From an uncultured Spirochaetota bacterium (GTDB lineage Bacteria > Spirochaetota > Brevinematia > Brevinematales > JAOACQ01), in NCBI GenBank assembly GCA_963768055.1, contig CAVYGN010000002.1, forward strand, positions 960,001 through 1,024,000: a stretch of DNA of 64,000 bases, read 5' to 3'. Numbering within the stretch: the stretch's first letter is position 1; each line of letters begins with the position of its first letter. The position numbers and the translations under genes were made by a program. The notes beneath the pieces are model-generated. The model was not told the DNA's origin. It saw only the letters and a list, made by a program, of their open reading frames with translations, and ran no database searches. Positions 30-45,342 of this stretch are shown here, piece by piece.

Positions 30-35
30 TTGCCT

Positions 36-512
36 ATGGATAATAAAGAAGTACTTACCAGGGAAGAGGTCAGACGCCTGATAGAATCGGATCAAAACCC
101 GAAAATAAGGCTGATGCTTATACTTGCCTATTCCGCCGGGCTCACGATAGAAGAGATCCAGGCTCTGAAACCCGGGGATATTGATTTTAATAGGAAAGCC
201 GTTCATATAAAAAAAGGGATCGATAATTCCGGACGGACTGTCGATTTAAGTCAAAACATACTCGACCTGGTAAAACCTTACATAGAAATTTACAGGCCTA
301 CTGCGAGGCTTTTCCCCGGCGGCGATTCGGTTTCTGAAATCACCGAGGGAGCTGTCAGGAACATTTTCAGGGACGCGATGCTCAAAGCCGGGATTAAAAA
401 AGACGCCGGGATAGAGATACTCAGGCGAAGCATTTCAGCCCACCTCATGGAAAGCGGCGCAAGTAAAGAGGAAATCCGCCGGCTGCTGGGCGATCGGATT
501 AAGACGGTTTGA
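36..512 (+). CDS. Tyrosine recombinase (XerD/phage-integrase-like) catalytic domain, catalytic residues degenerate
   Basis: VLTREEVRRL..LAYSAGLT..LKPGDID..AGIKK..ILRRSISAHLMESG..IRRLLGD follows the family pattern, but GLR>GLT, HxLR>EILR, LGH>LGD and there is no C-terminal Tyr; frame is open to the window edge so the start is uncertain. Confidence 0.75.
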   Translation: MDNKEVLTREEVRRLIESDQNPKIRLMLILAYSAGLTIEEIQALKPGDIDFNRKAVHIKKGIDNSGRTVDLSQNILDLVKPYIEIYRPTARLFPGGDSVSEITEGAVRNIFRDAMLKAGIKKDAGIEILRRSISAHLMESGASKEEIRRLLGDRIKTV

Positions 513-12257: not shown

Positions 12258-13301
12258 ATGAAAAAAGGAGTTGTGTGGTTATATGCGGGTGTGTTTTTAA
12301 TGACGATGAGTTCTGTTTCTTTCTCTGCCGTTATAAAAACTCTGATTGACTTCAATGTTTTTGACTCGAATATATCTATAGTGGCTGAGAGAGATAAAAC
12401 AATTCATTCCAATATGGTTCAAAAGGGTAAAGCAGTTGATTTTACCCAATATGGATATCCCGAGGTAGAATTTACAGGAGCTGACTGGGCCTTAGACAAA
12501 TGGAAAGTCACTCTGGCATCATCGGCCAATACTGTAAGGAATAACGTACTTTCTTACGTGATGAAAGTCCCTAGCAAAAAGTTCGGCGATGTTCTCGGCG
12601 CAAGGATCCACTTTATTGAAGGAAGGTTCCTTTCATGGGCAACTATCGCACCTCCTTTCGAATTTTTTCCCTACTATGACGATGGTTCAAATGTAAATGT
12701 CAACGCCCAGAATGAAGAAAACAGCTTTGTCATGGGCATTCTTATGAATGTTGGCCAGATCAAATCGGTATCGTCATGGATTTATGGATTAAACTACCAG
12801 ATGCAGGCCGGGGTCAGGATGCGCGACAGAAATGATCAAGTCCAGGACTATTTTATGGGTTCCGTTTATTACGACGGGTGGAGAAAACTTGTTTGGTCGA
12901 ATCCCGAATATACGGAATCGATCCAAGACAGGGTACTTCAGAGGATCGCTTTATATCCCAGGAGTTATCCTTATATAGCTTTCGATTCTTTTATAGTTTA
13001 TAAACCTGAAACTGAGAATGGCGGTGATTTCGTTATTTATTTCAAGGATGTCGATGTTGAATACGACAGGGCGATAATCCGTGAGGAACTTGATATAGAC
13101 GATGAAGCGGCTTGGGGTATACTGCAGGCCGAAAGGCTTAAAAAGAGGGTCAGCGACCTGAAAAATATCGGTGAAAAGATCTATCTCTACAAACAGGAAC
13201 TCAAACGGCAGGGCGCGGCTACAAATCAGAACAATCCGGTCACTCCCAAGACAGCCACAACTTCTACTGCAACAACTAACACGACGACAACAAATAAATA
13301 G
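12258..13301 (+). CDS. flaA: Flagellar filament outer layer (sheath) protein FlaA
   Basis: Signal peptide, LIDF, W.V.LASSA, LGARIHF, NVGQIKSV..W.YG.NY, GWRKLVW.NP.Y, GGDFV.YFKDV...YDRA, DIDDE..WGIL. Confidence 0.92.
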   Translation: MKKGVVWLYAGVFLMTMSSVSFSAVIKTLIDFNVFDSNISIVAERDKTIHSNMVQKGKAVDFTQYGYPEVEFTGADWALDKWKVTLASSANTVRNNVLSYVMKVPSKKFGDVLGARIHFIEGRFLSWATIAPPFEFFPYYDDGSNVNVNAQNEENSFVMGILMNVGQIKSVSSWIYGLNYQMQAGVRMRDRNDQVQDYFMGSVYYDGWRKLVWSNPEYTESIQDRVLQRIALYPRSYPYIAFDSFIVYKPETENGGDFVIYFKDVDVEYDRAIIREELDIDDEAAWGILQAERLKKRVSDLKNIGEKIYLYKQELKRQGAATNQNNPVTPKTATTSTATTNTTTTNK

Positions 13302-35505: not shown

Positions 35506-37293
35506 TCATAAAGTCTTATTAAAGACCTCGAAGATCAGAGTACGCTCGGCAACCTGTTTGATATTTTTACTGCCGGAAGCTCTGGGAACAAGCCAGCATA
35601 CCGCCCTGTTCCCCTTGAAATATTTCATTGCCGAGGAAATTACCTTTTTAAGAGAATAAGGATTTCTGGAAACAATATTTATCATTATCATCAGCCAGTT
35701 TATCGAATAATGGCTTATATTGGAACCTCCATTGAAAAGCTGTGTAACTGAAGGGCCGGATGTCTTTTTTTTCGCATGTCCGAAATCCGGGGCTTCTGCC
35801 TTTCCTATCGGATCGACTCCGGCTGCCAGACAAAAATCTTCCGAGGCCCATTTTGCCACCGATTCAGTGGAAGAAATCCTGGAATAATTACAGCCATACA
35901 GGTCAATTATAAGTTCGAACGAACTTGAAAATCCGTCTTCGACAGGTGATTTGAACGATCTGGACAGGACTTTTGTCGGATCTGTGAGCCTCGGTTTATA
36001 ATATTCATTATCCGGTTTTAGCCTTTTATTATCCTGGGTCAGTTCCGCCCTGTAAATCAGGCTGTTATTCCGGATTTTCCGGATATCGGCGAAAGAACCA
36101 CGGGGTATGTGAAGGCAATTTCCCGATGAAGCTCCATAGTAAATAAGAGAATAGGAAACGGCATTATCAACGGGAAGTTCTGCACAGGTAAAGCAGTTGG
36201 CGCATCCTATGGAATCATACTGCCTGTAATTTATTGCGCTTGTTTCAATATACTGGATCAGGGTATCCCCCTCTCCGAATATTTCGTTTGAAACGATAGG
36301 AGTCCCGAAGGCCTTCATCTTGATAGCCTCGCATGTCTTTTCGCTCCATTCGGCAACTTTTTCCATTGTCGGGATCCTGTTGTTTTTCAGTTCGATATCA
36401 ATAACAATTTCTTCGCCATACTTATCCTGTTCGAGCCTTCGTTGAAATTCGGGATAAATCGATACGGATACATCAGGAGAATACCAATTAAATTTAAGCC
36501 CCGATTCTTTGAAAGCCTTTTTCGAATTATTTACAGACCTGGGGAAAACTTTTCTGCCCTTAGAGCCGGCGGTGAGGCTGAAAGGGCCTCCGATATAACT
36601 TGAATTTGAGAACTGGATTACCCTTACATCGTCAAAAACCCTTTCGACCTGTCTCCAGCTTGCAGGACATTCGGAAGGTTGTAATATAAGCGATCCCGTC
36701 TGGTGTATAGCTATTCCGCCATCAACAAGAGCATCGTAAACGCTCTGATAAAAATCGGTATTGAAAAGGCTTTGTGCGGGTCCGATGGGGTCGGTCGAAT
36801 CTATTATTATAACATCGCATTTATCTTTCAAGGATTTTATTACGTCCGCGCCGTCGCCGATTACAAGGTGTAATCTTTTATCGTCCCATACCCCTTCGGA
36901 TACGCTCGGCATGAATTCCCTGCACTTCTCTATTATCATTTTATCTATTTCAACCAGTGTGACAGATTTGACGGATTTATGCCTGAGCACCTCCCTGGCT
37001 ACTCCCCCGTCTCCTCCGCCTATGATAAGAATATTCCTGGCTGGTTTTAATAACGAGAATAAGGGCCAATGGGTTATCCATTCATGGTATATGCCCTCGT
37101 CCTCCTCGGTCAATTGTACCACGCCATCCAGAACGAGCACCCTTCCCAGACGGGATGTTTCAAGAATCAGCATATCCTGGTAACCGGTATCAGTGAGCGG
37201 TACCAGGACCTTTTCTACCTTAAAACCGTAAGTGATATCTGAATAAAGGTCTTCATAATACCAGAATTCCTTATTGCGGCTGATTAATCCCAT
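35506..37293 (-). CDS. speE: Polyamine aminopropyltransferase (spermidine synthase) fused to two AdoMet-decarboxylase-like repeats
   Basis: N-half: LDGVVQ.TE.DE..YHE, IGGGDGG, VEID, DSTDP; C-half: two SpeD-like units (E.VID..QYIETSAI..FTC; ELIIDLYGC..FGH..SGPSVTQL..SNISHY). Confidence 0.88.
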   Translation of the reverse strand: MGLISRNKEFWYYEDLYSDITYGFKVEKVLVPLTDTGYQDMLILETSRLGRVLVLDGVVQLTEEDEGIYHEWITHWPLFSLLKPARNILIIGGGDGGVAREVLRHKSVKSVTLVEIDKMIIEKCREFMPSVSEGVWDDKRLHLVIGDGADVIKSLKDKCDVIIIDSTDPIGPAQSLFNTDFYQSVYDALVDGGIAIHQTGSLILQPSECPASWRQVERVFDDVRVIQFSNSSYIGGPFSLTAGSKGRKVFPRSVNNSKKAFKESGLKFNWYSPDVSVSIYPEFQRRLEQDKYGEEIVIDIELKNNRIPTMEKVAEWSEKTCEAIKMKAFGTPIVSNEIFGEGDTLIQYIETSAINYRQYDSIGCANCFTCAELPVDNAVSYSLIYYGASSGNCLHIPRGSFADIRKIRNNSLIYRAELTQDNKRLKPDNEYYKPRLTDPTKVLSRSFKSPVEDGFSSSFELIIDLYGCNYSRISSTESVAKWASEDFCLAAGVDPIGKAEAPDFGHAKKKTSGPSVTQLFNGGSNISHYSINWLMIMINIVSRNPYSLKKVISSAMKYFKGNRAVCWLVPRASGSKNIKQVAERTLIFEVFNKTL

Positions 37294-37511: not shown

Positions 37512-39317
37512 ATGGATAATGAGAAAGAAAAGAACTATATGGAAGCCTCCCTCGAGTATTCACGAATGGCGGAATTATTGAAGAAAGAGCGTCCCGCTGA
37601 AGCCGCGATTATGGTAAAAGATATTCTGGAATCGGGCGAGAGCCTCCAGGAAAAGATACGTAAAATAGAATTGATCGATGCGCAGGAAATTTCACTTTCT
37701 ATAGAGCAAACCCTCATTACAAATGAAGAAGCTCAGGACATAATACGTAAAAAGCATGTATTGACGGAGGAAACGGCCAGGAAAAATTGTGAAAAAATAA
37801 AAATAAAACTGCCGAAAAATCACTTTCTTTTATATTTATTCAGGGATTACAAAAAAATTCGTTTATTCGGTAAGTCTGCCGGTTTTATCAGATTCGGCTT
37901 CAATCCCTCCGGTGTAAAATTTGATTTTACCAGGCTCAGGACTTTATTAAATTCGCTGCAGAAAGATGCCGGCGATCTTATGGAAACATTGAATTTCGTA
38001 CTGGATAAAGGCTGGATGGACCTGGATAAGCTTGGGTATAATCTTATCGTTATTTTTAAACAGCTTTGCCAGGCAATAGTATCGGCGCCGATCGCCAGAA
38101 TAGGGACATCGGGCCGCCAGCTTCTAATGAAATACAGGGATGTTGAAACCTTTTTCCTTTCCTGCCATTATCAGCCCGAATATCCGGATATTATCCGGGC
38201 AAGTATCGTAGACGTACTTCTAAAACAGAAGAAAGCTGAAAGCACGATCGAGCTCTCTGAGATCCAGACAAAGAGGATCCTGTGGGAGCAGGGTAACTTT
38301 CTCTGCCTTCACAATTTCATACTTTCGATAAATATGTTCGAGTATAGAAGATTTGTCAAGCTGGACGATCTTATCCACAGGCAGCAGGGTGGAATAGTGA
38401 ATACGTTCTCATTCGATTGCCCGCCGAATATCCAGCAGAAGATCAATGTCTATATAAACGATAAGACACAGTCCCTGCAGAATTTGTTAAGGGACAAGGT
38501 AGAGATAAACAGGATCCAGTATTTTTTAAAACATTTCATCAAACAGGATTCCTCGGGTTACAGGAGTTATAATTTCAAGATTTTCATCGATTTTTACAAC
38601 TATACCGGTTTCGGGGCCGAAGAGGATTGTTTCAGCTACGATAAGAGCAATACCGCCAAATTGGCCTTCAATATTTTTTCAAAATTTTTAGCAGAGTTCG
38701 AAAATTTTTTTATCGACAAGATAAATATTGAGGATTTCGGTCCTATCAGGGTATTCAGCAGGGAAGTCTTTCAGCTTGAAATCGATAAGCTCCGCCTGGG
38801 GGTTTTGAAATTTTCGGATTCAATTTTTACCCTGCCGATAGTTTCCAGGAGGGAATTCTTTGAATTAAAAACCTCTAAAAAGGAAGTAATGCCGGCCCCT
38901 CCCGTACTGGCTATGATACAAACTATCGACGCTCTTTCCGACATTCTCTCTGAAATAGGGACAAAACTTGGCAATATCCATATAAACTATAAAAATGCAT
39001 CCTTAGAAAACCCTGCGGAAAATCAGGTCAACCCTCTTGAAATCTCTGCAACCAGGCAGCGGGTTGTTTCAGTCCCATACTGGGATAAAAAAATTATGAC
39101 TCCGGGGTTTTTAAGGGAAAAATTTTTTTCTGACGCGGTTGCGACAATTACGAGCCTTTGTTTTCTTTCGGCGGTTTATTTTTATAATATGCGTTTTTAT
39201 ACGGTCCTCGAAAAGGAAATGAAGATCAACAATATGATAATGGATGTAAAGAAAACCCTCGAAAGGCTAGCCGATGTGGTAACTTATGAAAAGATCAGAA
39301 AACTGCAAGGCGATTGA
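37512..39317 (+). CDS. Hypothetical protein (large, soluble)
   Basis: 601-aa ORF with GAGGA RBS and own promoter; no motif recognised. Confidence 0.75.
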   Translation: MDNEKEKNYMEASLEYSRMAELLKKERPAEAAIMVKDILESGESLQEKIRKIELIDAQEISLSIEQTLITNEEAQDIIRKKHVLTEETARKNCEKIKIKLPKNHFLLYLFRDYKKIRLFGKSAGFIRFGFNPSGVKFDFTRLRTLLNSLQKDAGDLMETLNFVLDKGWMDLDKLGYNLIVIFKQLCQAIVSAPIARIGTSGRQLLMKYRDVETFFLSCHYQPEYPDIIRASIVDVLLKQKKAESTIELSEIQTKRILWEQGNFLCLHNFILSINMFEYRRFVKLDDLIHRQQGGIVNTFSFDCPPNIQQKINVYINDKTQSLQNLLRDKVEINRIQYFLKHFIKQDSSGYRSYNFKIFIDFYNYTGFGAEEDCFSYDKSNTAKLAFNIFSKFLAEFENFFIDKINIEDFGPIRVFSREVFQLEIDKLRLGVLKFSDSIFTLPIVSRREFFELKTSKKEVMPAPPVLAMIQTIDALSDILSEIGTKLGNIHINYKNASLENPAENQVNPLEISATRQRVVSVPYWDKKIMTPGFLREKFFSDAVATITSLCFLSAVYFYNMRFYTVLEKEMKINNMIMDVKKTLERLADVVTYEKIRKLQGD

Positions 39318-42797: not shown

Positions 42798-44291
42798 CTA
42801 TTGATTATAATAATCCCTCTTGATTTTTTCAAATTCGTCTTTTCCGCATGCAAGGGCCGCGGCAGCGGGAGCGGTTTTTTTTACGGTTTCAACCATTTCG
42901 GATGCTATTTTCCGTATATCCCACTGCGCGTAAGCGTCCATGCGCAACCTCGCGATATGATAGATTTCCCGTAAATTGACATTTACAAGTATCCTTCGCC
43001 TGTGGGCGTTAGTAAGGATGTAGTCCGAGGCCATGCCGTTTTCAGTCTTTAATTTTTCATAAGTATTTTCCGTTTCTGCAATGATATTATTAAATAAGCC
43101 GGCCATTCCGATCTCTTCGATCGATGGGGGTAATGTGACACCGAGCGAAGTCTCATAGGGCTGCTTGAGTATAGTCATCATCCGGTGCCTTTTCATCTGT
43201 GCAAAGGCGCTTGAACTAAGGATAATTTCAAACAGGAAATTCACATTTTCGAATTCCCTGTAAAGAGCGTCGTGCTCGCCCAGGTCTTTAAATATCTCTT
43301 TAAAAAAAAGAGTCCGCCCGTTTTCATTCATATTTTCCGCGGCCGACAGGCATTCCATGAAAGATCTCGCCGATGACGAATGAAGAAGGCTTGCTATGAT
43401 TTTTATGTCGGGTTCGGGCGTTTGTTCAAGAAGGGTCACGTTCCTGCCTGTTTTCGACTCTTTTCCGTTAAGATATTTTTTTGCCAGTAATTTAAGGTTT
43501 TCCCTGCCCTGTTTCAATATGCCGTCGGAAACGTCTCTGCCCGTTTGTTTTTTAAAACTTTCCCGGTCGGTCAATATAATAAGGGAGGGCACTACGGTCT
43601 TAGCCTTTTCGTAAAGTTTTAACGACAGGTCCCGGACTTCACTGAGAGGGTGGTATTTAAGTTTCCTGATAATATTTTCTAGGTTCCTGGCGTTAACGGA
43701 AAATCCGAGCTGGCATTCGGTGGCAAGAGACATGACATAACGGGCGTCTTCCTTGGCCCGCCCCTCTATTATGTTCGCTCCGGATTTCGTGGCTGTCATT
43801 TCAGGATGGGCGGCTTTCTGCGCTTCATGGAGAGCAGGGAAGAGTTTCATGTAAGCATCTATCTGTTTACAATAAGCGGAAGAGAAGAGCTCTTTATCTT
43901 CATCATTAAACTCTGCGGGTATTACCGTATCTCCCTCAAGGGTTATATATCGCTGTGATTTTTCCGTATACGAACTCAAACGTGATTCTTCAAGGGCTTC
44001 GACAGCGAGCCTCGATAAGCCGGTAATATCGAAATTCAGGCAGGCATGTTCGGCAACAGAGTGGTGCCCCATTTTAAATATAATGTTTTCGTTAGATTTC
44101 CTCGCTTTATCAAGAGCGTCCCTAGCCGCCGCGCGCAGTTCGCCGACAGGGCGTTCGTCCCTGCTGATTCTCGCATAGGCTGCGGAAAGCGTCTCCGGAG
44201 TAATGTTGTCCCTGCCGTCCCAACCTCTTTCTTTGAGGGATTCCAGGACTACTGCATCTACGTTAAATCCGGCAAGTTCGATTTTAAGCAT
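42798..44291 (-). CDS. thyX: FAD-dependent thymidylate synthase, tandem-domain type
   Basis: AAYARISR, GHHSVAEH, SYTEKSQRY, EDARY, NARNLE; second repeat with KRHR, NLRE, AQWDIR. Confidence 0.92.
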   Translation of the reverse strand: MLKIELAGFNVDAVVLESLKERGWDGRDNITPETLSAAYARISRDERPVGELRAAARDALDKARKSNENIIFKMGHHSVAEHACLNFDITGLSRLAVEALEESRLSSYTEKSQRYITLEGDTVIPAEFNDEDKELFSSAYCKQIDAYMKLFPALHEAQKAAHPEMTATKSGANIIEGRAKEDARYVMSLATECQLGFSVNARNLENIIRKLKYHPLSEVRDLSLKLYEKAKTVVPSLIILTDRESFKKQTGRDVSDGILKQGRENLKLLAKKYLNGKESKTGRNVTLLEQTPEPDIKIIASLLHSSSARSFMECLSAAENMNENGRTLFFKEIFKDLGEHDALYREFENVNFLFEIILSSSAFAQMKRHRMMTILKQPYETSLGVTLPPSIEEIGMAGLFNNIIAETENTYEKLKTENGMASDYILTNAHRRRILVNVNLREIYHIARLRMDAYAQWDIRKIASEMVETVKKTAPAAAALACGKDEFEKIKRDYYNQ

Positions 44292-44313: not shown

Positions 44314-45342
44314 CTAGTCTAACACTCCGATTTCCAGGGGAGGCCTTTCTATCAGTTCGTACTTCACCCCGGCTTCCTTGAAAAGCTCTTCGAAAGTTTT
44401 ATCGGGATAATAAGAACAGGCAATGAATTTCCTGATCTTTGAATTCACGATCATTTTAGCACAGATTATGCAGGGGGAGTGAGTGCAGTAAATAGTTGCG
44501 CCTTCAGTGGTTATTCCATTTAAGGCGGCATGTATAATGGCGTTCTGCTCGGCATGGACTGCGCGGCAGATCTCGTGCTGCATGCCCGATTTGATTCCAA
44601 GCTGGTCCCTGAGACAGCCGAGTTCAATGCAGTCTTTAATTCCGGAAGGGGCCCCGTTATAACCGGAACTGACTATATGATTATTATTTACTATGACAGC
44701 GCCTACATGGTGCCTGATGCAGGTGGAGCGTTCCGCTATGAGGTAGGCCATCTTTATAAAATATTCGTCCCAGGACGGCCTGATGTAAGGTTTGTAATTA
44801 AGTTCGGCAAGGATTGCGTCCAGTTTTTTATACATGGACCTCAAGCTTCCGGAATTATCGATTTTATAATCGGCAAGCTCCAGACAGCGGTTAAGCTGCT
44901 GGGCCTTATCATCCGAGGAGTTTTCTCTTTCCTCTTTACGGATAAATTCCTCAAGGGTCTCCCCGTCACCGACCCTTCCCCTCTTAATAGACCTTTCGAA
45001 CCTGTTATGTATGTCGGCCGTTATACCGATGAGTTTGAAAGATTTAAGATTGCTTCTTAAAACTTCGATTTCATATGGGTTTCTTATACTGTCGACAATC
45101 GCCTGCGGGAGGTTTTTAATCTTTGTTATGACCCTTTTAGCCAGGGTCGCCGGGCCTTCGCTTTCCCTCAAGTCATTGCCTATATCGATAAGACTGTCGC
45201 GGTTTGATTCCAGACCCTGCCTTACAGCTTCTTCCCTGATAATGTCGGAAAGAGAAAAAGCGATGAATTTTTTCTTTTCCACGAGGTATTTTATAGCTTC
45301 GCCCTTTCCGGCGGCGTTCGTCCCTGTAAAACCTAGAAACAT
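44314..45342 (-). CDS. dCMP deaminase (ComEB-like) fused to an N-terminal P-loop kinase-like domain
   Basis: GTNAAGKG P-loop, DSIRNP.E; then RPSWDEYF, RSTC, GYNG, HAEQNA, SPCIIC. Confidence 0.9.
   Translation of the reverse strand: MFLGFTGTNAAGKGEAIKYLVEKKKFIAFSLSDIIREEAVRQGLESNRDSLIDIGNDLRESEGPATLAKRVITKIKNLPQAIVDSIRNPYEIEVLRSNLKSFKLIGITADIHNRFERSIKRGRVGDGETLEEFIRKEERENSSDDKAQQLNRCLELADYKIDNSGSLRSMYKKLDAILAELNYKPYIRPSWDEYFIKMAYLIAERSTCIRHHVGAVIVNNNHIVSSGYNGAPSGIKDCIELGCLRDQLGIKSGMQHEICRAVHAEQNAIIHAALNGITTEGATIYCTHSPCIICAKMIVNSKIRKFIACSYYPDKTFEELFKEAGVKYELIERPPLEIGVLD

Follow-up and report, generated by a model that had tools for sequence, protein, structure and literature searches.

The 64,000-nucleotide stretch of DNA analysed here (contig CAVYGN010000002.1, positions 960,001 to 1,024,000, from an uncultured Spirochaetota bacterium; hereafter the window) encodes a 595-residue protein in which a polyamine aminopropyltransferase (SpeE) domain is followed by two diverged repeats related to bacterial S-adenosylmethionine decarboxylase (AdoMetDC, SpeD). 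The predicted catalytic set of the decarboxylase is divided between the repeats, the putative pyruvoyl-forming Ser and the Cys lying in repeat 1 and a second Ser and the His in repeat 2. The best overall explanation, to which we assign a probability of about 0.45, is a bifunctional polyamine enzyme with a split-site, SpeDC-type decarboxylase. In such an enzyme, the N-terminal SpeE domain would pass the aminopropyl moiety of decarboxylated S-adenosylmethionine (dcAdoMet) on to a diamine, and the C-terminal 310 residues would form two diverged copies of the class-1b AdoMetDC fold, packed in one chain like the protomers of a bacterial SpeD dimer. Of the two composite sites of that dimer, one would survive. 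Repeat 1 would supply C370 and the self-cleaving T351–S352 bond, with S352 becoming the pyruvoyl cofactor, whereas repeat 2 would supply S515 and H528. The mirror site would be dead: repeat 2 has G523 at the Ser column and lacks a Cys, and repeat 1 lacks a His. Processing would yield two chains, one of 39.7 kDa that holds SpeE and the first half of repeat 1, and one of 27.2 kDa that bears an N-terminal pyruvate. The surviving site would convert L-ornithine to putrescine, which the attached SpeE would use together with dcAdoMet made by a separate SpeD. The arrangement would go back to an older SpeE–SpeD fusion whose one SpeD-like domain was duplicated in tandem, with complementary loss afterwards, an end state equal to that of eukaryotic class-2 AdoMetDC but independently reached. 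The features of the gene, with the evidence for each in brackets (HMM, hidden Markov model), are as follows.

35506..37293, minus strand: whole open reading frame (ORF), comprising SpeE, decarboxylase repeat 1, linker and decarboxylase repeat 2 (595 residues plus stop)
36454..37275, minus strand: aminopropyltransferase (SpeE) domain including the N-terminal tetramerisation domain, residues 7–280 (Pfam, NCBIfam and PDB matches)
36100..36438, minus strand: decarboxylase repeat 1, residues 286–398, with processing site and Cys kept and no His (HMM E 7.8e-18; BLASTP; tree clade)
36238..36243, minus strand: predicted self-cleavage site T351–S352, S352 being the predicted pyruvoyl precursor (invariance, alignment, IETS motif)
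36184..36186, minus strand: C370, predicted catalytic Cys at the T. maritima C83 column (invariant in 110/110; alignment)
35920..36099, minus strand: end of repeat unit 1 (helix and strand past the PRGSF motif) and variable linker, residues 399–458 (secondary structure of the model; indels in alignment A2)
35590..35919, minus strand: decarboxylase repeat 2, residues 459–568, with Ser and His kept, Gly at the pyruvoyl position and no Cys (HMM E 3.5e-19; BLASTP; tree clade)
35761..35778, minus strand: loop H506-A-K-K-K-T511, just N-terminal to S515 (conservation in 108 sequences)
35749..35751, minus strand: S515, predicted processing helper at the T. maritima S55 / human S229 column (invariant in 110/110; alignment)
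35725..35727, minus strand: G523 at the pyruvoyl-Ser column of repeat 2, the mark of a presumptively dead second site (invariant Gly in 110/110; alignment)
35710..35712, minus strand: H528 at the T. maritima H68 / human H243 column (invariant in 110/110; alignment)
35698..35700, minus strand: N532 at the T. maritima E72 column, four residues after the His (invariant Asn in 110/110)

The SpeE domain was readily assigned. In the 595-residue ORF, PF01564 (Spermine_synth) scores 169 bits against a gathering score of 22.9, and PF17284, the N-terminal tetramerisation domain, scores 38.4 bits against 22.1. The NCBIfam model NF002010 (PRK00811) gives 285.9 bits for the domain, passing its cut-off of 260, and TIGR00417 gives 246.8 bits, slightly under its cut-off of 249.55. 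Residues 9–280 match E. coli SpeE (PDB 3o4f) with E 8e-58. Inspection of the sequence located the motifs GGGDGG and DSTDP, which we take to be the active-site motifs of the domain. By these family scores the domain is a polyamine aminopropyltransferase, intact as an earlier note on this DNA had described it, and aminopropyl transfer is predicted.

The two repeats that follow are more remote from known families. With PF02675 (AdoMet_dc, gathering score 25), the whole protein scores 21.3 bits and residues 285–595 score 24.2 bits in two stretches; repeat 2 alone scores 14.4 bits and repeat 1 alone has no match. SAM_decarbox, the class-2 family against which the earlier note had proposed a check, is not among the Pfam matches at E ≤ 10. 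The repeats were detected instead by an HMM of 18 standalone SpeD-like proteins, which finds repeat 1 at residues 286–398 (E 7.8e-18) and repeat 2 at residues 459–568 (E 3.5e-19), so that the two SpeD-like repeats claimed there are real, though sub-threshold in Pfam. An exhaustive phmmer search with residues 285–595 against 1.84 billion representative proteins gave 43 matches, including proteins of about 110–165 residues that each resemble repeat 1 or repeat 2; 33 of the 35 remote matches scanned belong to PF02675 above its gathering score. BLASTP yielded no alignment between the two repeats at E ≤ 100. Against the single SpeD domain of another SpeE fusion (P0127), repeat 1 aligns with 38% identity (E 3e-29) and repeat 2 with 44% identity (E 9e-34). 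Searches of PDB sequences with each repeat alone (phmmer) returned nothing relevant, and the family profile A2 gave 0 matches there. Only a profile that includes standalone relatives (A3, made of 18 standalone proteins and the two window repeats) reaches the SpeD structures of T. maritima (1tlu, 1vr7) and A. aeolicus. The ESM Atlas gave no usable match.

The match of the A3 profile to 1tlu/1vr7 set the residue columns of the two repeats, as read from the A3 alignment.

T. maritima S55 column: T344 in repeat 1, S515 in repeat 2
T. maritima S63 column: S352 in repeat 1, G523 in repeat 2
T. maritima H68 column: N355 or R357 in repeat 1, H528 in repeat 2
T. maritima E72 column: not applicable in repeat 1, N532 in repeat 2
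T. maritima C83 column: C370 in repeat 1, R543 in repeat 2

This alignment upholds the mapping to T. maritima S55, S63, H68 and C83 in the earlier note, which had also placed T344, T351, S352, R357, C370, S515, G523, H528, N532 and R543 correctly. Its reading of Thr344 as an anomaly did not survive: Thr occupies the Ser55 column in 23 of 24 bona fide SpeDs and is not a defect. It had further put Arg357 at the His position. Whichever alignment is used, residues 353–369 of repeat 1 hold no His, but because repeat 1 has a two-residue deletion between S352 and C370 the column itself is ambiguous, and MAFFT sets N355, not R357, under His68.

E350, T351, S352, R357, C370, S515, G523, H528, N532 and W533 are invariant in all 110 full-length homologues, whereas R543 varies among them. 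Across 108 sequences, 45 of the 311 C-terminal positions never vary, and that these include all four of the proposed catalytic residues is unlikely to be due to chance. Moreover, S352 shares its IETS motif with S229 of D. phosphitoxidans SpeD2, a processing residue described as validated in the accessible part of PMC10407285, and self-cleavage at T351–S352 is predicted. A further conserved element is the loop at residues 506–511, where the 108 sequences show no variation at H506, K508–K510 and T511 and at least 90% conservation of A507. Residues 506–512 have a predicted local distance difference test score (pLDDT) below 50 in the full-length model and form a low-confidence block in the C-terminal model too. 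The loop is thus strongly basic and predicted to be flexible, and lies beside a site expected to bind a cationic substrate.

An AlphaFold2 model of residues 285–595, computed from a 113-sequence alignment, has a mean pLDDT of 93 and a predicted template-modelling score (pTM) of 0.92. When this model was compared with the PDB by Foldseek, the top matches were uncleaved proenzyme mutants of human AdoMetDC (1msv, 1jl0; E ~1e-6, 318–321 columns, template-modelling score (TM) ~0.5). These were followed by the T. brucei AdoMetDC/prozyme chains and, in third place, by T. maritima and A. aeolicus SpeD over one repeat, with TM 0.76–0.85 on the target (0.85 on 118 columns for T. maritima SpeD). T. maritima SpeD is a homodimer. 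The Foldseek ranking suggests that the C-terminal half is the single-chain equivalent of the SpeD dimer, like a class-2 enzyme, and the model thus supports the single-chain pseudo-dimer of the AdoMetDC fold that had been proposed from the sequence. In the full-length model (pLDDT 85.7, pTM 0.67), the orientation of SpeE relative to the decarboxylase is uncertain and poorly fixed, and therefore makes no case for channelling.

Three standalone double-domain proteins from outside the fusion family, recovered by the phmmer search with residues 285–595, show other one-site designs. In P0160 (258 residues), which is unrelated, the helper Ser and the His are retained in domain 1, and IETS and the Cys in domain 2, with Arg at the His column of the latter; the protein echoes the pairing of {Ser63, Cys83} with {Ser55, His68} in reversed order. 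In P0156 (321 residues) and P0159 (323 residues), domain 1 is without the pyruvoyl Ser and the Cys and keeps the Ser and the His. Domain 2 is complete in P0156 and has EVS and a His at the helper-Ser column in P0159. The four domains of P0156 and P0159 cluster in the tree (91/90), which suggests another independent internal duplication. Together, these one-site designs support the idea that one half contributes {pyruvoyl Ser, Cys} and the opposite half {helper Ser, His}.

A maximum-likelihood tree of 63 domains (IQ-TREE, careful search; bootstrap values had not fully settled) bears on the origin of the repeats. All 13 sampled repeat-1 domains form one clade (100/99), as do all 13 sampled repeat-2 domains (100/100). 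The two clades are united with P0127 at 97/92, and their sister group consists of four other SpeE-plus-one-SpeD fusions (94/89). P0127 is a 435-residue protein consisting of SpeE and a single SpeD domain that bears an FGH...GPS loop, IETS, His and FTC together, and it aligns to P0001 over residues 3–419. The simplest history that these data suggest is an older SpeE–SpeD fusion, tandem duplication of its SpeD-like domain and subsequent complementary residue loss. Because the tree has the repeats born inside a bacterial SpeE-plus-one-SpeD lineage, the eukaryote-like split site appears to be an independent invention. An origin separate from that of the eukaryotic enzyme, which the earlier note had proposed, is thereby supported. 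The branching order is alike in both repeat clades, with L048 basal and the spirochaete sequences together, which suggests that the duplication is older than the spread of the fusion family.

A bolder version of this history, which we offer tentatively and at rather less than even odds, holds that the eukaryotic class-2 design re-evolved in bacteria. Duplication within a SpeE fusion and complementary loss would have left one composite pyruvoyl site and a dead mirror site, marked by the invariant G523 and R357, that was free to become a regulatory pocket like the putrescine site of the human enzyme. If this is true and the live site is an ornithine decarboxylase (ODC), this would be the first case of one protein both producing putrescine and aminopropylating it. 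The reversed-split standalone doubles such as P0160 would then mean that the route was used more than once.

The architecture is widespread. A word-indexed search gave at least 153 protein clusters at E ≤ 0.001; 110 of the 120 listed are 570–600 residues long and share the SpeE and two-repeat architecture, an answer to the homologue search that the earlier note had proposed. Where they are named, members of the fusion family are called only 'spermidine synthase' or 'polyamine aminopropyltransferase'. When one genome per species was scanned, 54 related loci emerged; by the standalone-SpeD HMM, both repeats lie in one ORF at 53 of them, whereas the remaining locus (L053) is broken into two ORFs. 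This recurrence of the architecture in 53 of the 54 loci and 110 of the 120 listed proteins rules out an assembly or frameshift artefact, which was considered as the source of the fusion. Six of the loci are titled Brevinematales or Spirochaetota and are 64–80% identical to the window, and most others have Aminicenantes or Acidobacteriota in their titles; Chrysiogenales, Patescibacteria, Eubacteriales and Clostridia appear on a few bins (labels as given, unverified). One metagenome-assembled genome (MAG; CAWAOD01) has two copies of the gene on two contigs, L005 and L006, 66% and 64% identical to the window, and the L006 copy is missing six residues just ahead of the catalytic Cys motif of repeat 1. 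Single-domain SpeE–SpeD proteins of 426–470 residues occur among 29 listed clusters, two of which are named Ca. Sungbacteria (candidate phyla radiation, CPR) and Ca. Aenigmatarchaeota (DPANN). P0127, P0128, P0134, P0143 and P0187–P0210 have SpeE and then one IETS-type SpeD domain, and are named spermidine synthase, aminopropyltransferase or hypothetical.

The lineage of the repeats is informative about the reaction. According to the available text of Li et al. 2023 (PMC10407285), the SpeDC clade of SpeD homologues consists of pyruvoyl-dependent L-ornithine decarboxylases. The validated ODC domains (D. phosphitoxidans, Ca. Omnitrophica) given there read G-F-S-x-x-Q-L-I-E-T-S...G-H-F...Y-x-D-x-F-S-C, and the Ser of IETS (S229) is a proven processing residue. 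The bona fide AdoMetDC domains in the same text read A-E-S-H...H-x-W-P-E...F-T-C, with the Pro of H-x-x-P-E fully conserved. The window protein has Q347 and T351–S352 in repeat 1 and Q518 and H528–Y529 in repeat 2; in the 18 standalone relatives, the Gln is present in 18 and the Thr in 16. It reads E-T-S and H528-Y-S-I-N532 where bona fide rows read AESH (24/24) and H-x-x-P-E (23/24). Asn532 does occupy the position of a Glu, as the earlier note had stated, being invariant in 110 of 110 homologues at a column that is Glu in 24 of 24 bona fide SpeDs. The Glu at this position, four residues after the His, is presumably ribose-binding.

Profile scores point the same way. An IETS-type HMM, which was made from matches to the window query itself and is biased toward it, gives the repeats 62–72 bits, against 7–11 bits from an HMM of 24 bona fide SpeDs. 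TIGR03330, the AdoMetDC equivalog (cut-off 75.65), has no match to residues 285–595 at E ≤ 1 and gives IETS-type relatives 24–46 bits; as a positive control, it gives 113.9 bits to the true SpeD beside the family gene in L048. The Ser, His and Cys that serve as a criterion for SpeDC (T. maritima S63, H68 and C83) are present and invariant as S352, H528 and C370, but divided over the two repeats. By motif and score, then, the repeats belong to the IETS (SpeDC) lineage and not to the bona fide AdoMetDCs, and the name AdoMetDC that the earlier note had used is not borne out. It was right to leave the substrate open. Because the tested members of the IETS lineage are ornithine decarboxylases, L-ornithine is the most likely substrate, for which we would give a little short of an even chance.

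In one genome, the gene context is informative. [quoted passage not shown] The bona fide SpeD next to the fusion gene suggests that AdoMetDC is supplied separately in this genome. With its three transferase domains and two types of decarboxylase, the operon may serve to make a longer or modified polyamine. As a query, the L048 SpeD found 23 proteins, none of which is named Aminicenantes or Brevinematales, a result that is uninformative on whether those groups have a SpeD of their own.

Several points weigh against a split-site ornithine decarboxylase, apart from the bias of the IETS-type HMM. The meeting of S352, C370, S515 and H528 in space is a prediction from alignment and fold. The division of residues in the T. 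maritima dimer follows Toms et al., who reportedly described, in 2004, a site made of Ser63 and Cys83 of one protomer and Ser55 and His68 of the other. The literature searched contains no characterised member of the fusion family. Furthermore, only two of the four residues diagnostic of SpeDC, Gln and Thr, are strictly kept in the family (Q347, like Q518, is at least 90% conserved across 108 sequences and does not vary among the 28 of alignment A2; T351 is present in 110/110). The diagnostic Phe column holds Tyr in 104 of 110 homologues and Phe in 6, and the diagnostic Tyr is lost, with C364 and M537 at that column. The columns of these four residues were themselves inferred from the Fig. S5 text and Fig. 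8 legend in the accessible part of PMC10407285. The loss of the Tyr and the change from Phe to Tyr would suit an active split-site pyruvoyl decarboxylase that acts on something else, be it L-arginine (whose product agmatine would feed an agmatine aminopropyltransferase route), L-lysine, or some acidic or other amino compound. The family has conserved features of its own (the H-A-K-K-K-T loop, N532 and W533), and an arginine decarboxylase, that of Pelagibacter phage HTVC201P, lies within the SpeDC clade in what is available of PMC10407285. Yet nothing positive speaks for any one of these substrates, and the validated SpeDC enzymes in the same text are inactive on arginine or lysine, which leaves this alternative distinctly improbable.

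Other objections favour AdoMet as the substrate of the same single-chain, split-site decarboxylase, its dcAdoMet being used by its own SpeE in a self-contained putrescine-to-spermidine enzyme. The biosynthetic logic would be simpler if the SpeE fusion had its own dcAdoMet supplier, and the characterised SpeD–SpeE fusions in the accessible parts of PMC11107197 and PMC12803844 all pair AdoMetDC with the transferase. The ancestral-type, SpeE-fused single domains have Pro three residues after the His and FTC, as in bona fide AdoMetDC, and, judged by two names, occur in small-genome CPR and DPANN organisms. A separate bona fide SpeD is found within 10 kb at only one of the 54 loci and nowhere in the 64-kb window, an absence that has little weight either way. 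Against AdoMet stand the missing TIGR03330 match beside the high score of the true SpeD of L048, the invariant N532 in place of the Glu, the absence from the fusion family of a Pro at the third position after the His, and the agreement of IETS motif and HMM scores with the tested ODC lineage. Moreover, L048 would have two AdoMetDCs in one operon. We consider this reading unlikely, though it deserves to be kept in view. The remaining alternative is that the repeats are catalytically dead and act as a scaffold or oligomerisation module for SpeE, for which there is a precedent in the AdoMetDC-like N-terminal domain of human spermine synthase, kept for dimerisation according to the available part of PMC12803844. 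The repeats do score below the Pfam gathering score, and of the two potential sites one is plainly dead. But all 110 of the 110 homologues, though just ~50–80% identical, have E350-T351-S352, C370, S515 and H528 unchanged, and a scaffold would have no reason to retain precisely one full catalytic set. We regard it as very improbable. The split-site, SpeDC-type decarboxylase acting on ornithine is thus the reading that we prefer.

In the window, the fusion gene is flanked by a convergent HtrA-like protease gene on one side and a divergent gene for a 601-residue protein on the other. The latter ORF (37512–39317, plus strand) has no Pfam family at E ≤ 1e-5, and a homologue is equally placed in L001 and L002, the two closest Brevinematales loci. 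Pfam searches of 57 of the 89 window ORFs of at least 100 residues found no other polyamine genes in the 64 kb; the 32 ORFs left out mostly overlap longer ORFs on the opposite strand. Likewise, the 10-kb flanks of the 54 loci contain no conserved polyamine partner gene, and in Aminicenantes the fusion gene is flanked by urocanase, DnaK and other housekeeping genes. In the absence of a conserved polyamine partner, gene context indicates no function, L048 excepted. Elsewhere in the window, a 497-residue ORF (42798–44291, minus strand) has two Thy1 (ThyX) stretches and is about double the normal ThyX length; it may be a second tandem-duplicated enzyme of this genome. The adjoining ORF (44314–45342, minus strand; 342 residues) combines AAA_17 kinase-like and dCMP/cytidine deaminase domains. 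A 160-residue ORF of the phage-integrase family (30–512, plus strand) lies at the start of the window. A gene for a FlaA flagellar outer-layer (sheath) protein (12258–13301, plus strand) is a spirochaete marker and agrees with the Brevinematales relatives.

Fold and chemistry are already known, as is the notion of duplication with fusion. The novelty lies in finding, in a prokaryote, a true tandem duplicate with a split site that is of SpeDC-type ancestry and is attached C-terminally to SpeE. The literature searched contained no mention of a SpeE-first fusion, of a tandem pair with complementary residues or of Aminicenantes in this connection, though subscription papers and figures may hold more. 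In the accessible parts of PMC11107197, PMC12803844 and PMC10407285, AdoMetDC–aminopropyltransferase fusions have the decarboxylase at the N terminus and SpeD1–SpeD2 fusions are encoded upstream of speE. The available text of PMC10407285 further states that a fusion of two SpeDs, the assumed ancestor of eukaryotic AdoMetDC, seems to be absent in prokaryotes, and the best model that it offers is a SpeD–ODC fusion with a degraded second domain. The fusion family described here appears to be a true tandem duplicate whose halves share out the catalytic residues as those of the eukaryotic enzyme do, and would thus be a living example of the passage from a symmetric two-site dimer to an asymmetric one-site monomer. 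It would also amount to a complementation experiment set up by nature, able to tell, for pyruvoyl decarboxylases of the AdoMetDC fold, the residues that work in cis from those that work in trans. In addition, hundreds of MAG proteins called only 'polyamine aminopropyltransferase' carry a second, unannotated predicted enzyme, which changes polyamine pathway reconstructions for Aminicenantes and Brevinematales.

Close to the window protein in layout are the SpeE-plus-one-SpeD fusions (P0127, P0128, P0134, P0143 and others), which have the same domain order and the same IETS and FTC motifs. Their single domain, however, has Ser, IETS, His and Cys together, and they presumably dimerise into two sites. 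Fusions of AdoMetDC with an aminopropyltransferase are said to have been described by Green et al. in 2011. Those of Pelagibacter, a delta-proteobacterium and Krumholzibacteria, in what is accessible of PMC11107197 and PMC12803844, likewise join a decarboxylase fold and a SpeE-type transferase in one polypeptide, but they have one bona fide class-1b domain at the N terminus, whereas the window protein has the transferase first and then two IETS-type repeats. The C-terminal placement singled out in the earlier note does distinguish the protein from these characterised fusions; it is not unique, given the single-domain SpeE–SpeD proteins of 426–470 residues.

The closest standalone relatives of the repeats, by the exhaustive phmmer search, are SpeDC-type proteins. 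The standalone SpeDC ODCs in the available part of PMC10407285 share with them IETS, the Gln three residues after the helper Ser, the aromatic residue after the His and the N/D-x-F-x-C motif. Such proteins are ~110–165 residues long and presumably two-site homodimers, whereas the window protein has a fused, asymmetric one-site pair that has lost the fourth diagnostic Tyr. The SpeD1–SpeD2 tandem fusions of D. phosphitoxidans, Ca. Omnitrophica OLB16 and V. vadensis, as presented in that part of PMC10407285, likewise place two class-1b domains, one being of IETS type, in a single bacterial chain. The V. vadensis fusion keeps only one pyruvoyl site and is proposed there as a model for the origin of class 2. 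These fusions combine a bona fide AdoMetDC domain with an ODC domain whose ancestry differs, are not fused to SpeE in that text, and have two complete sites or one wholly degraded domain, whereas the window repeats are duplicates of one domain with complementary halves.

The Cys of the first half of human AdoMetDC is C82. The human residues S68, S229 and H243 named in the earlier note agree with the roles given in the accessible text of PMC3975893, in which T. maritima S55 corresponds to human S229. Eukaryotic class-2 AdoMetDC (human, potato and T. brucei; 1msv, 1jl0, 1mhm, 5tvm) is likewise one chain with two AdoMetDC-fold halves and a single pyruvoyl site, and has the pyruvoyl Ser and the Cys in the first half and the helper Ser and the His in the second, as in the window protein. 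It is also the best structural match to the model across both repeats. It differs in that the window repeats nest in the tree among bacterial class-1b-type domains, as a separate duplication inside a SpeE fusion, and in that the window module has SpeE joined to it, falls in the IETS/SpeDC-type lineage and is without the Glu four residues after the His. Alignment and predicted fold thus suggest that the window module works like a class-2 enzyme, with one chain, two halves, Ser and Cys joined to Ser and His, and one site, but is not a member of that class.

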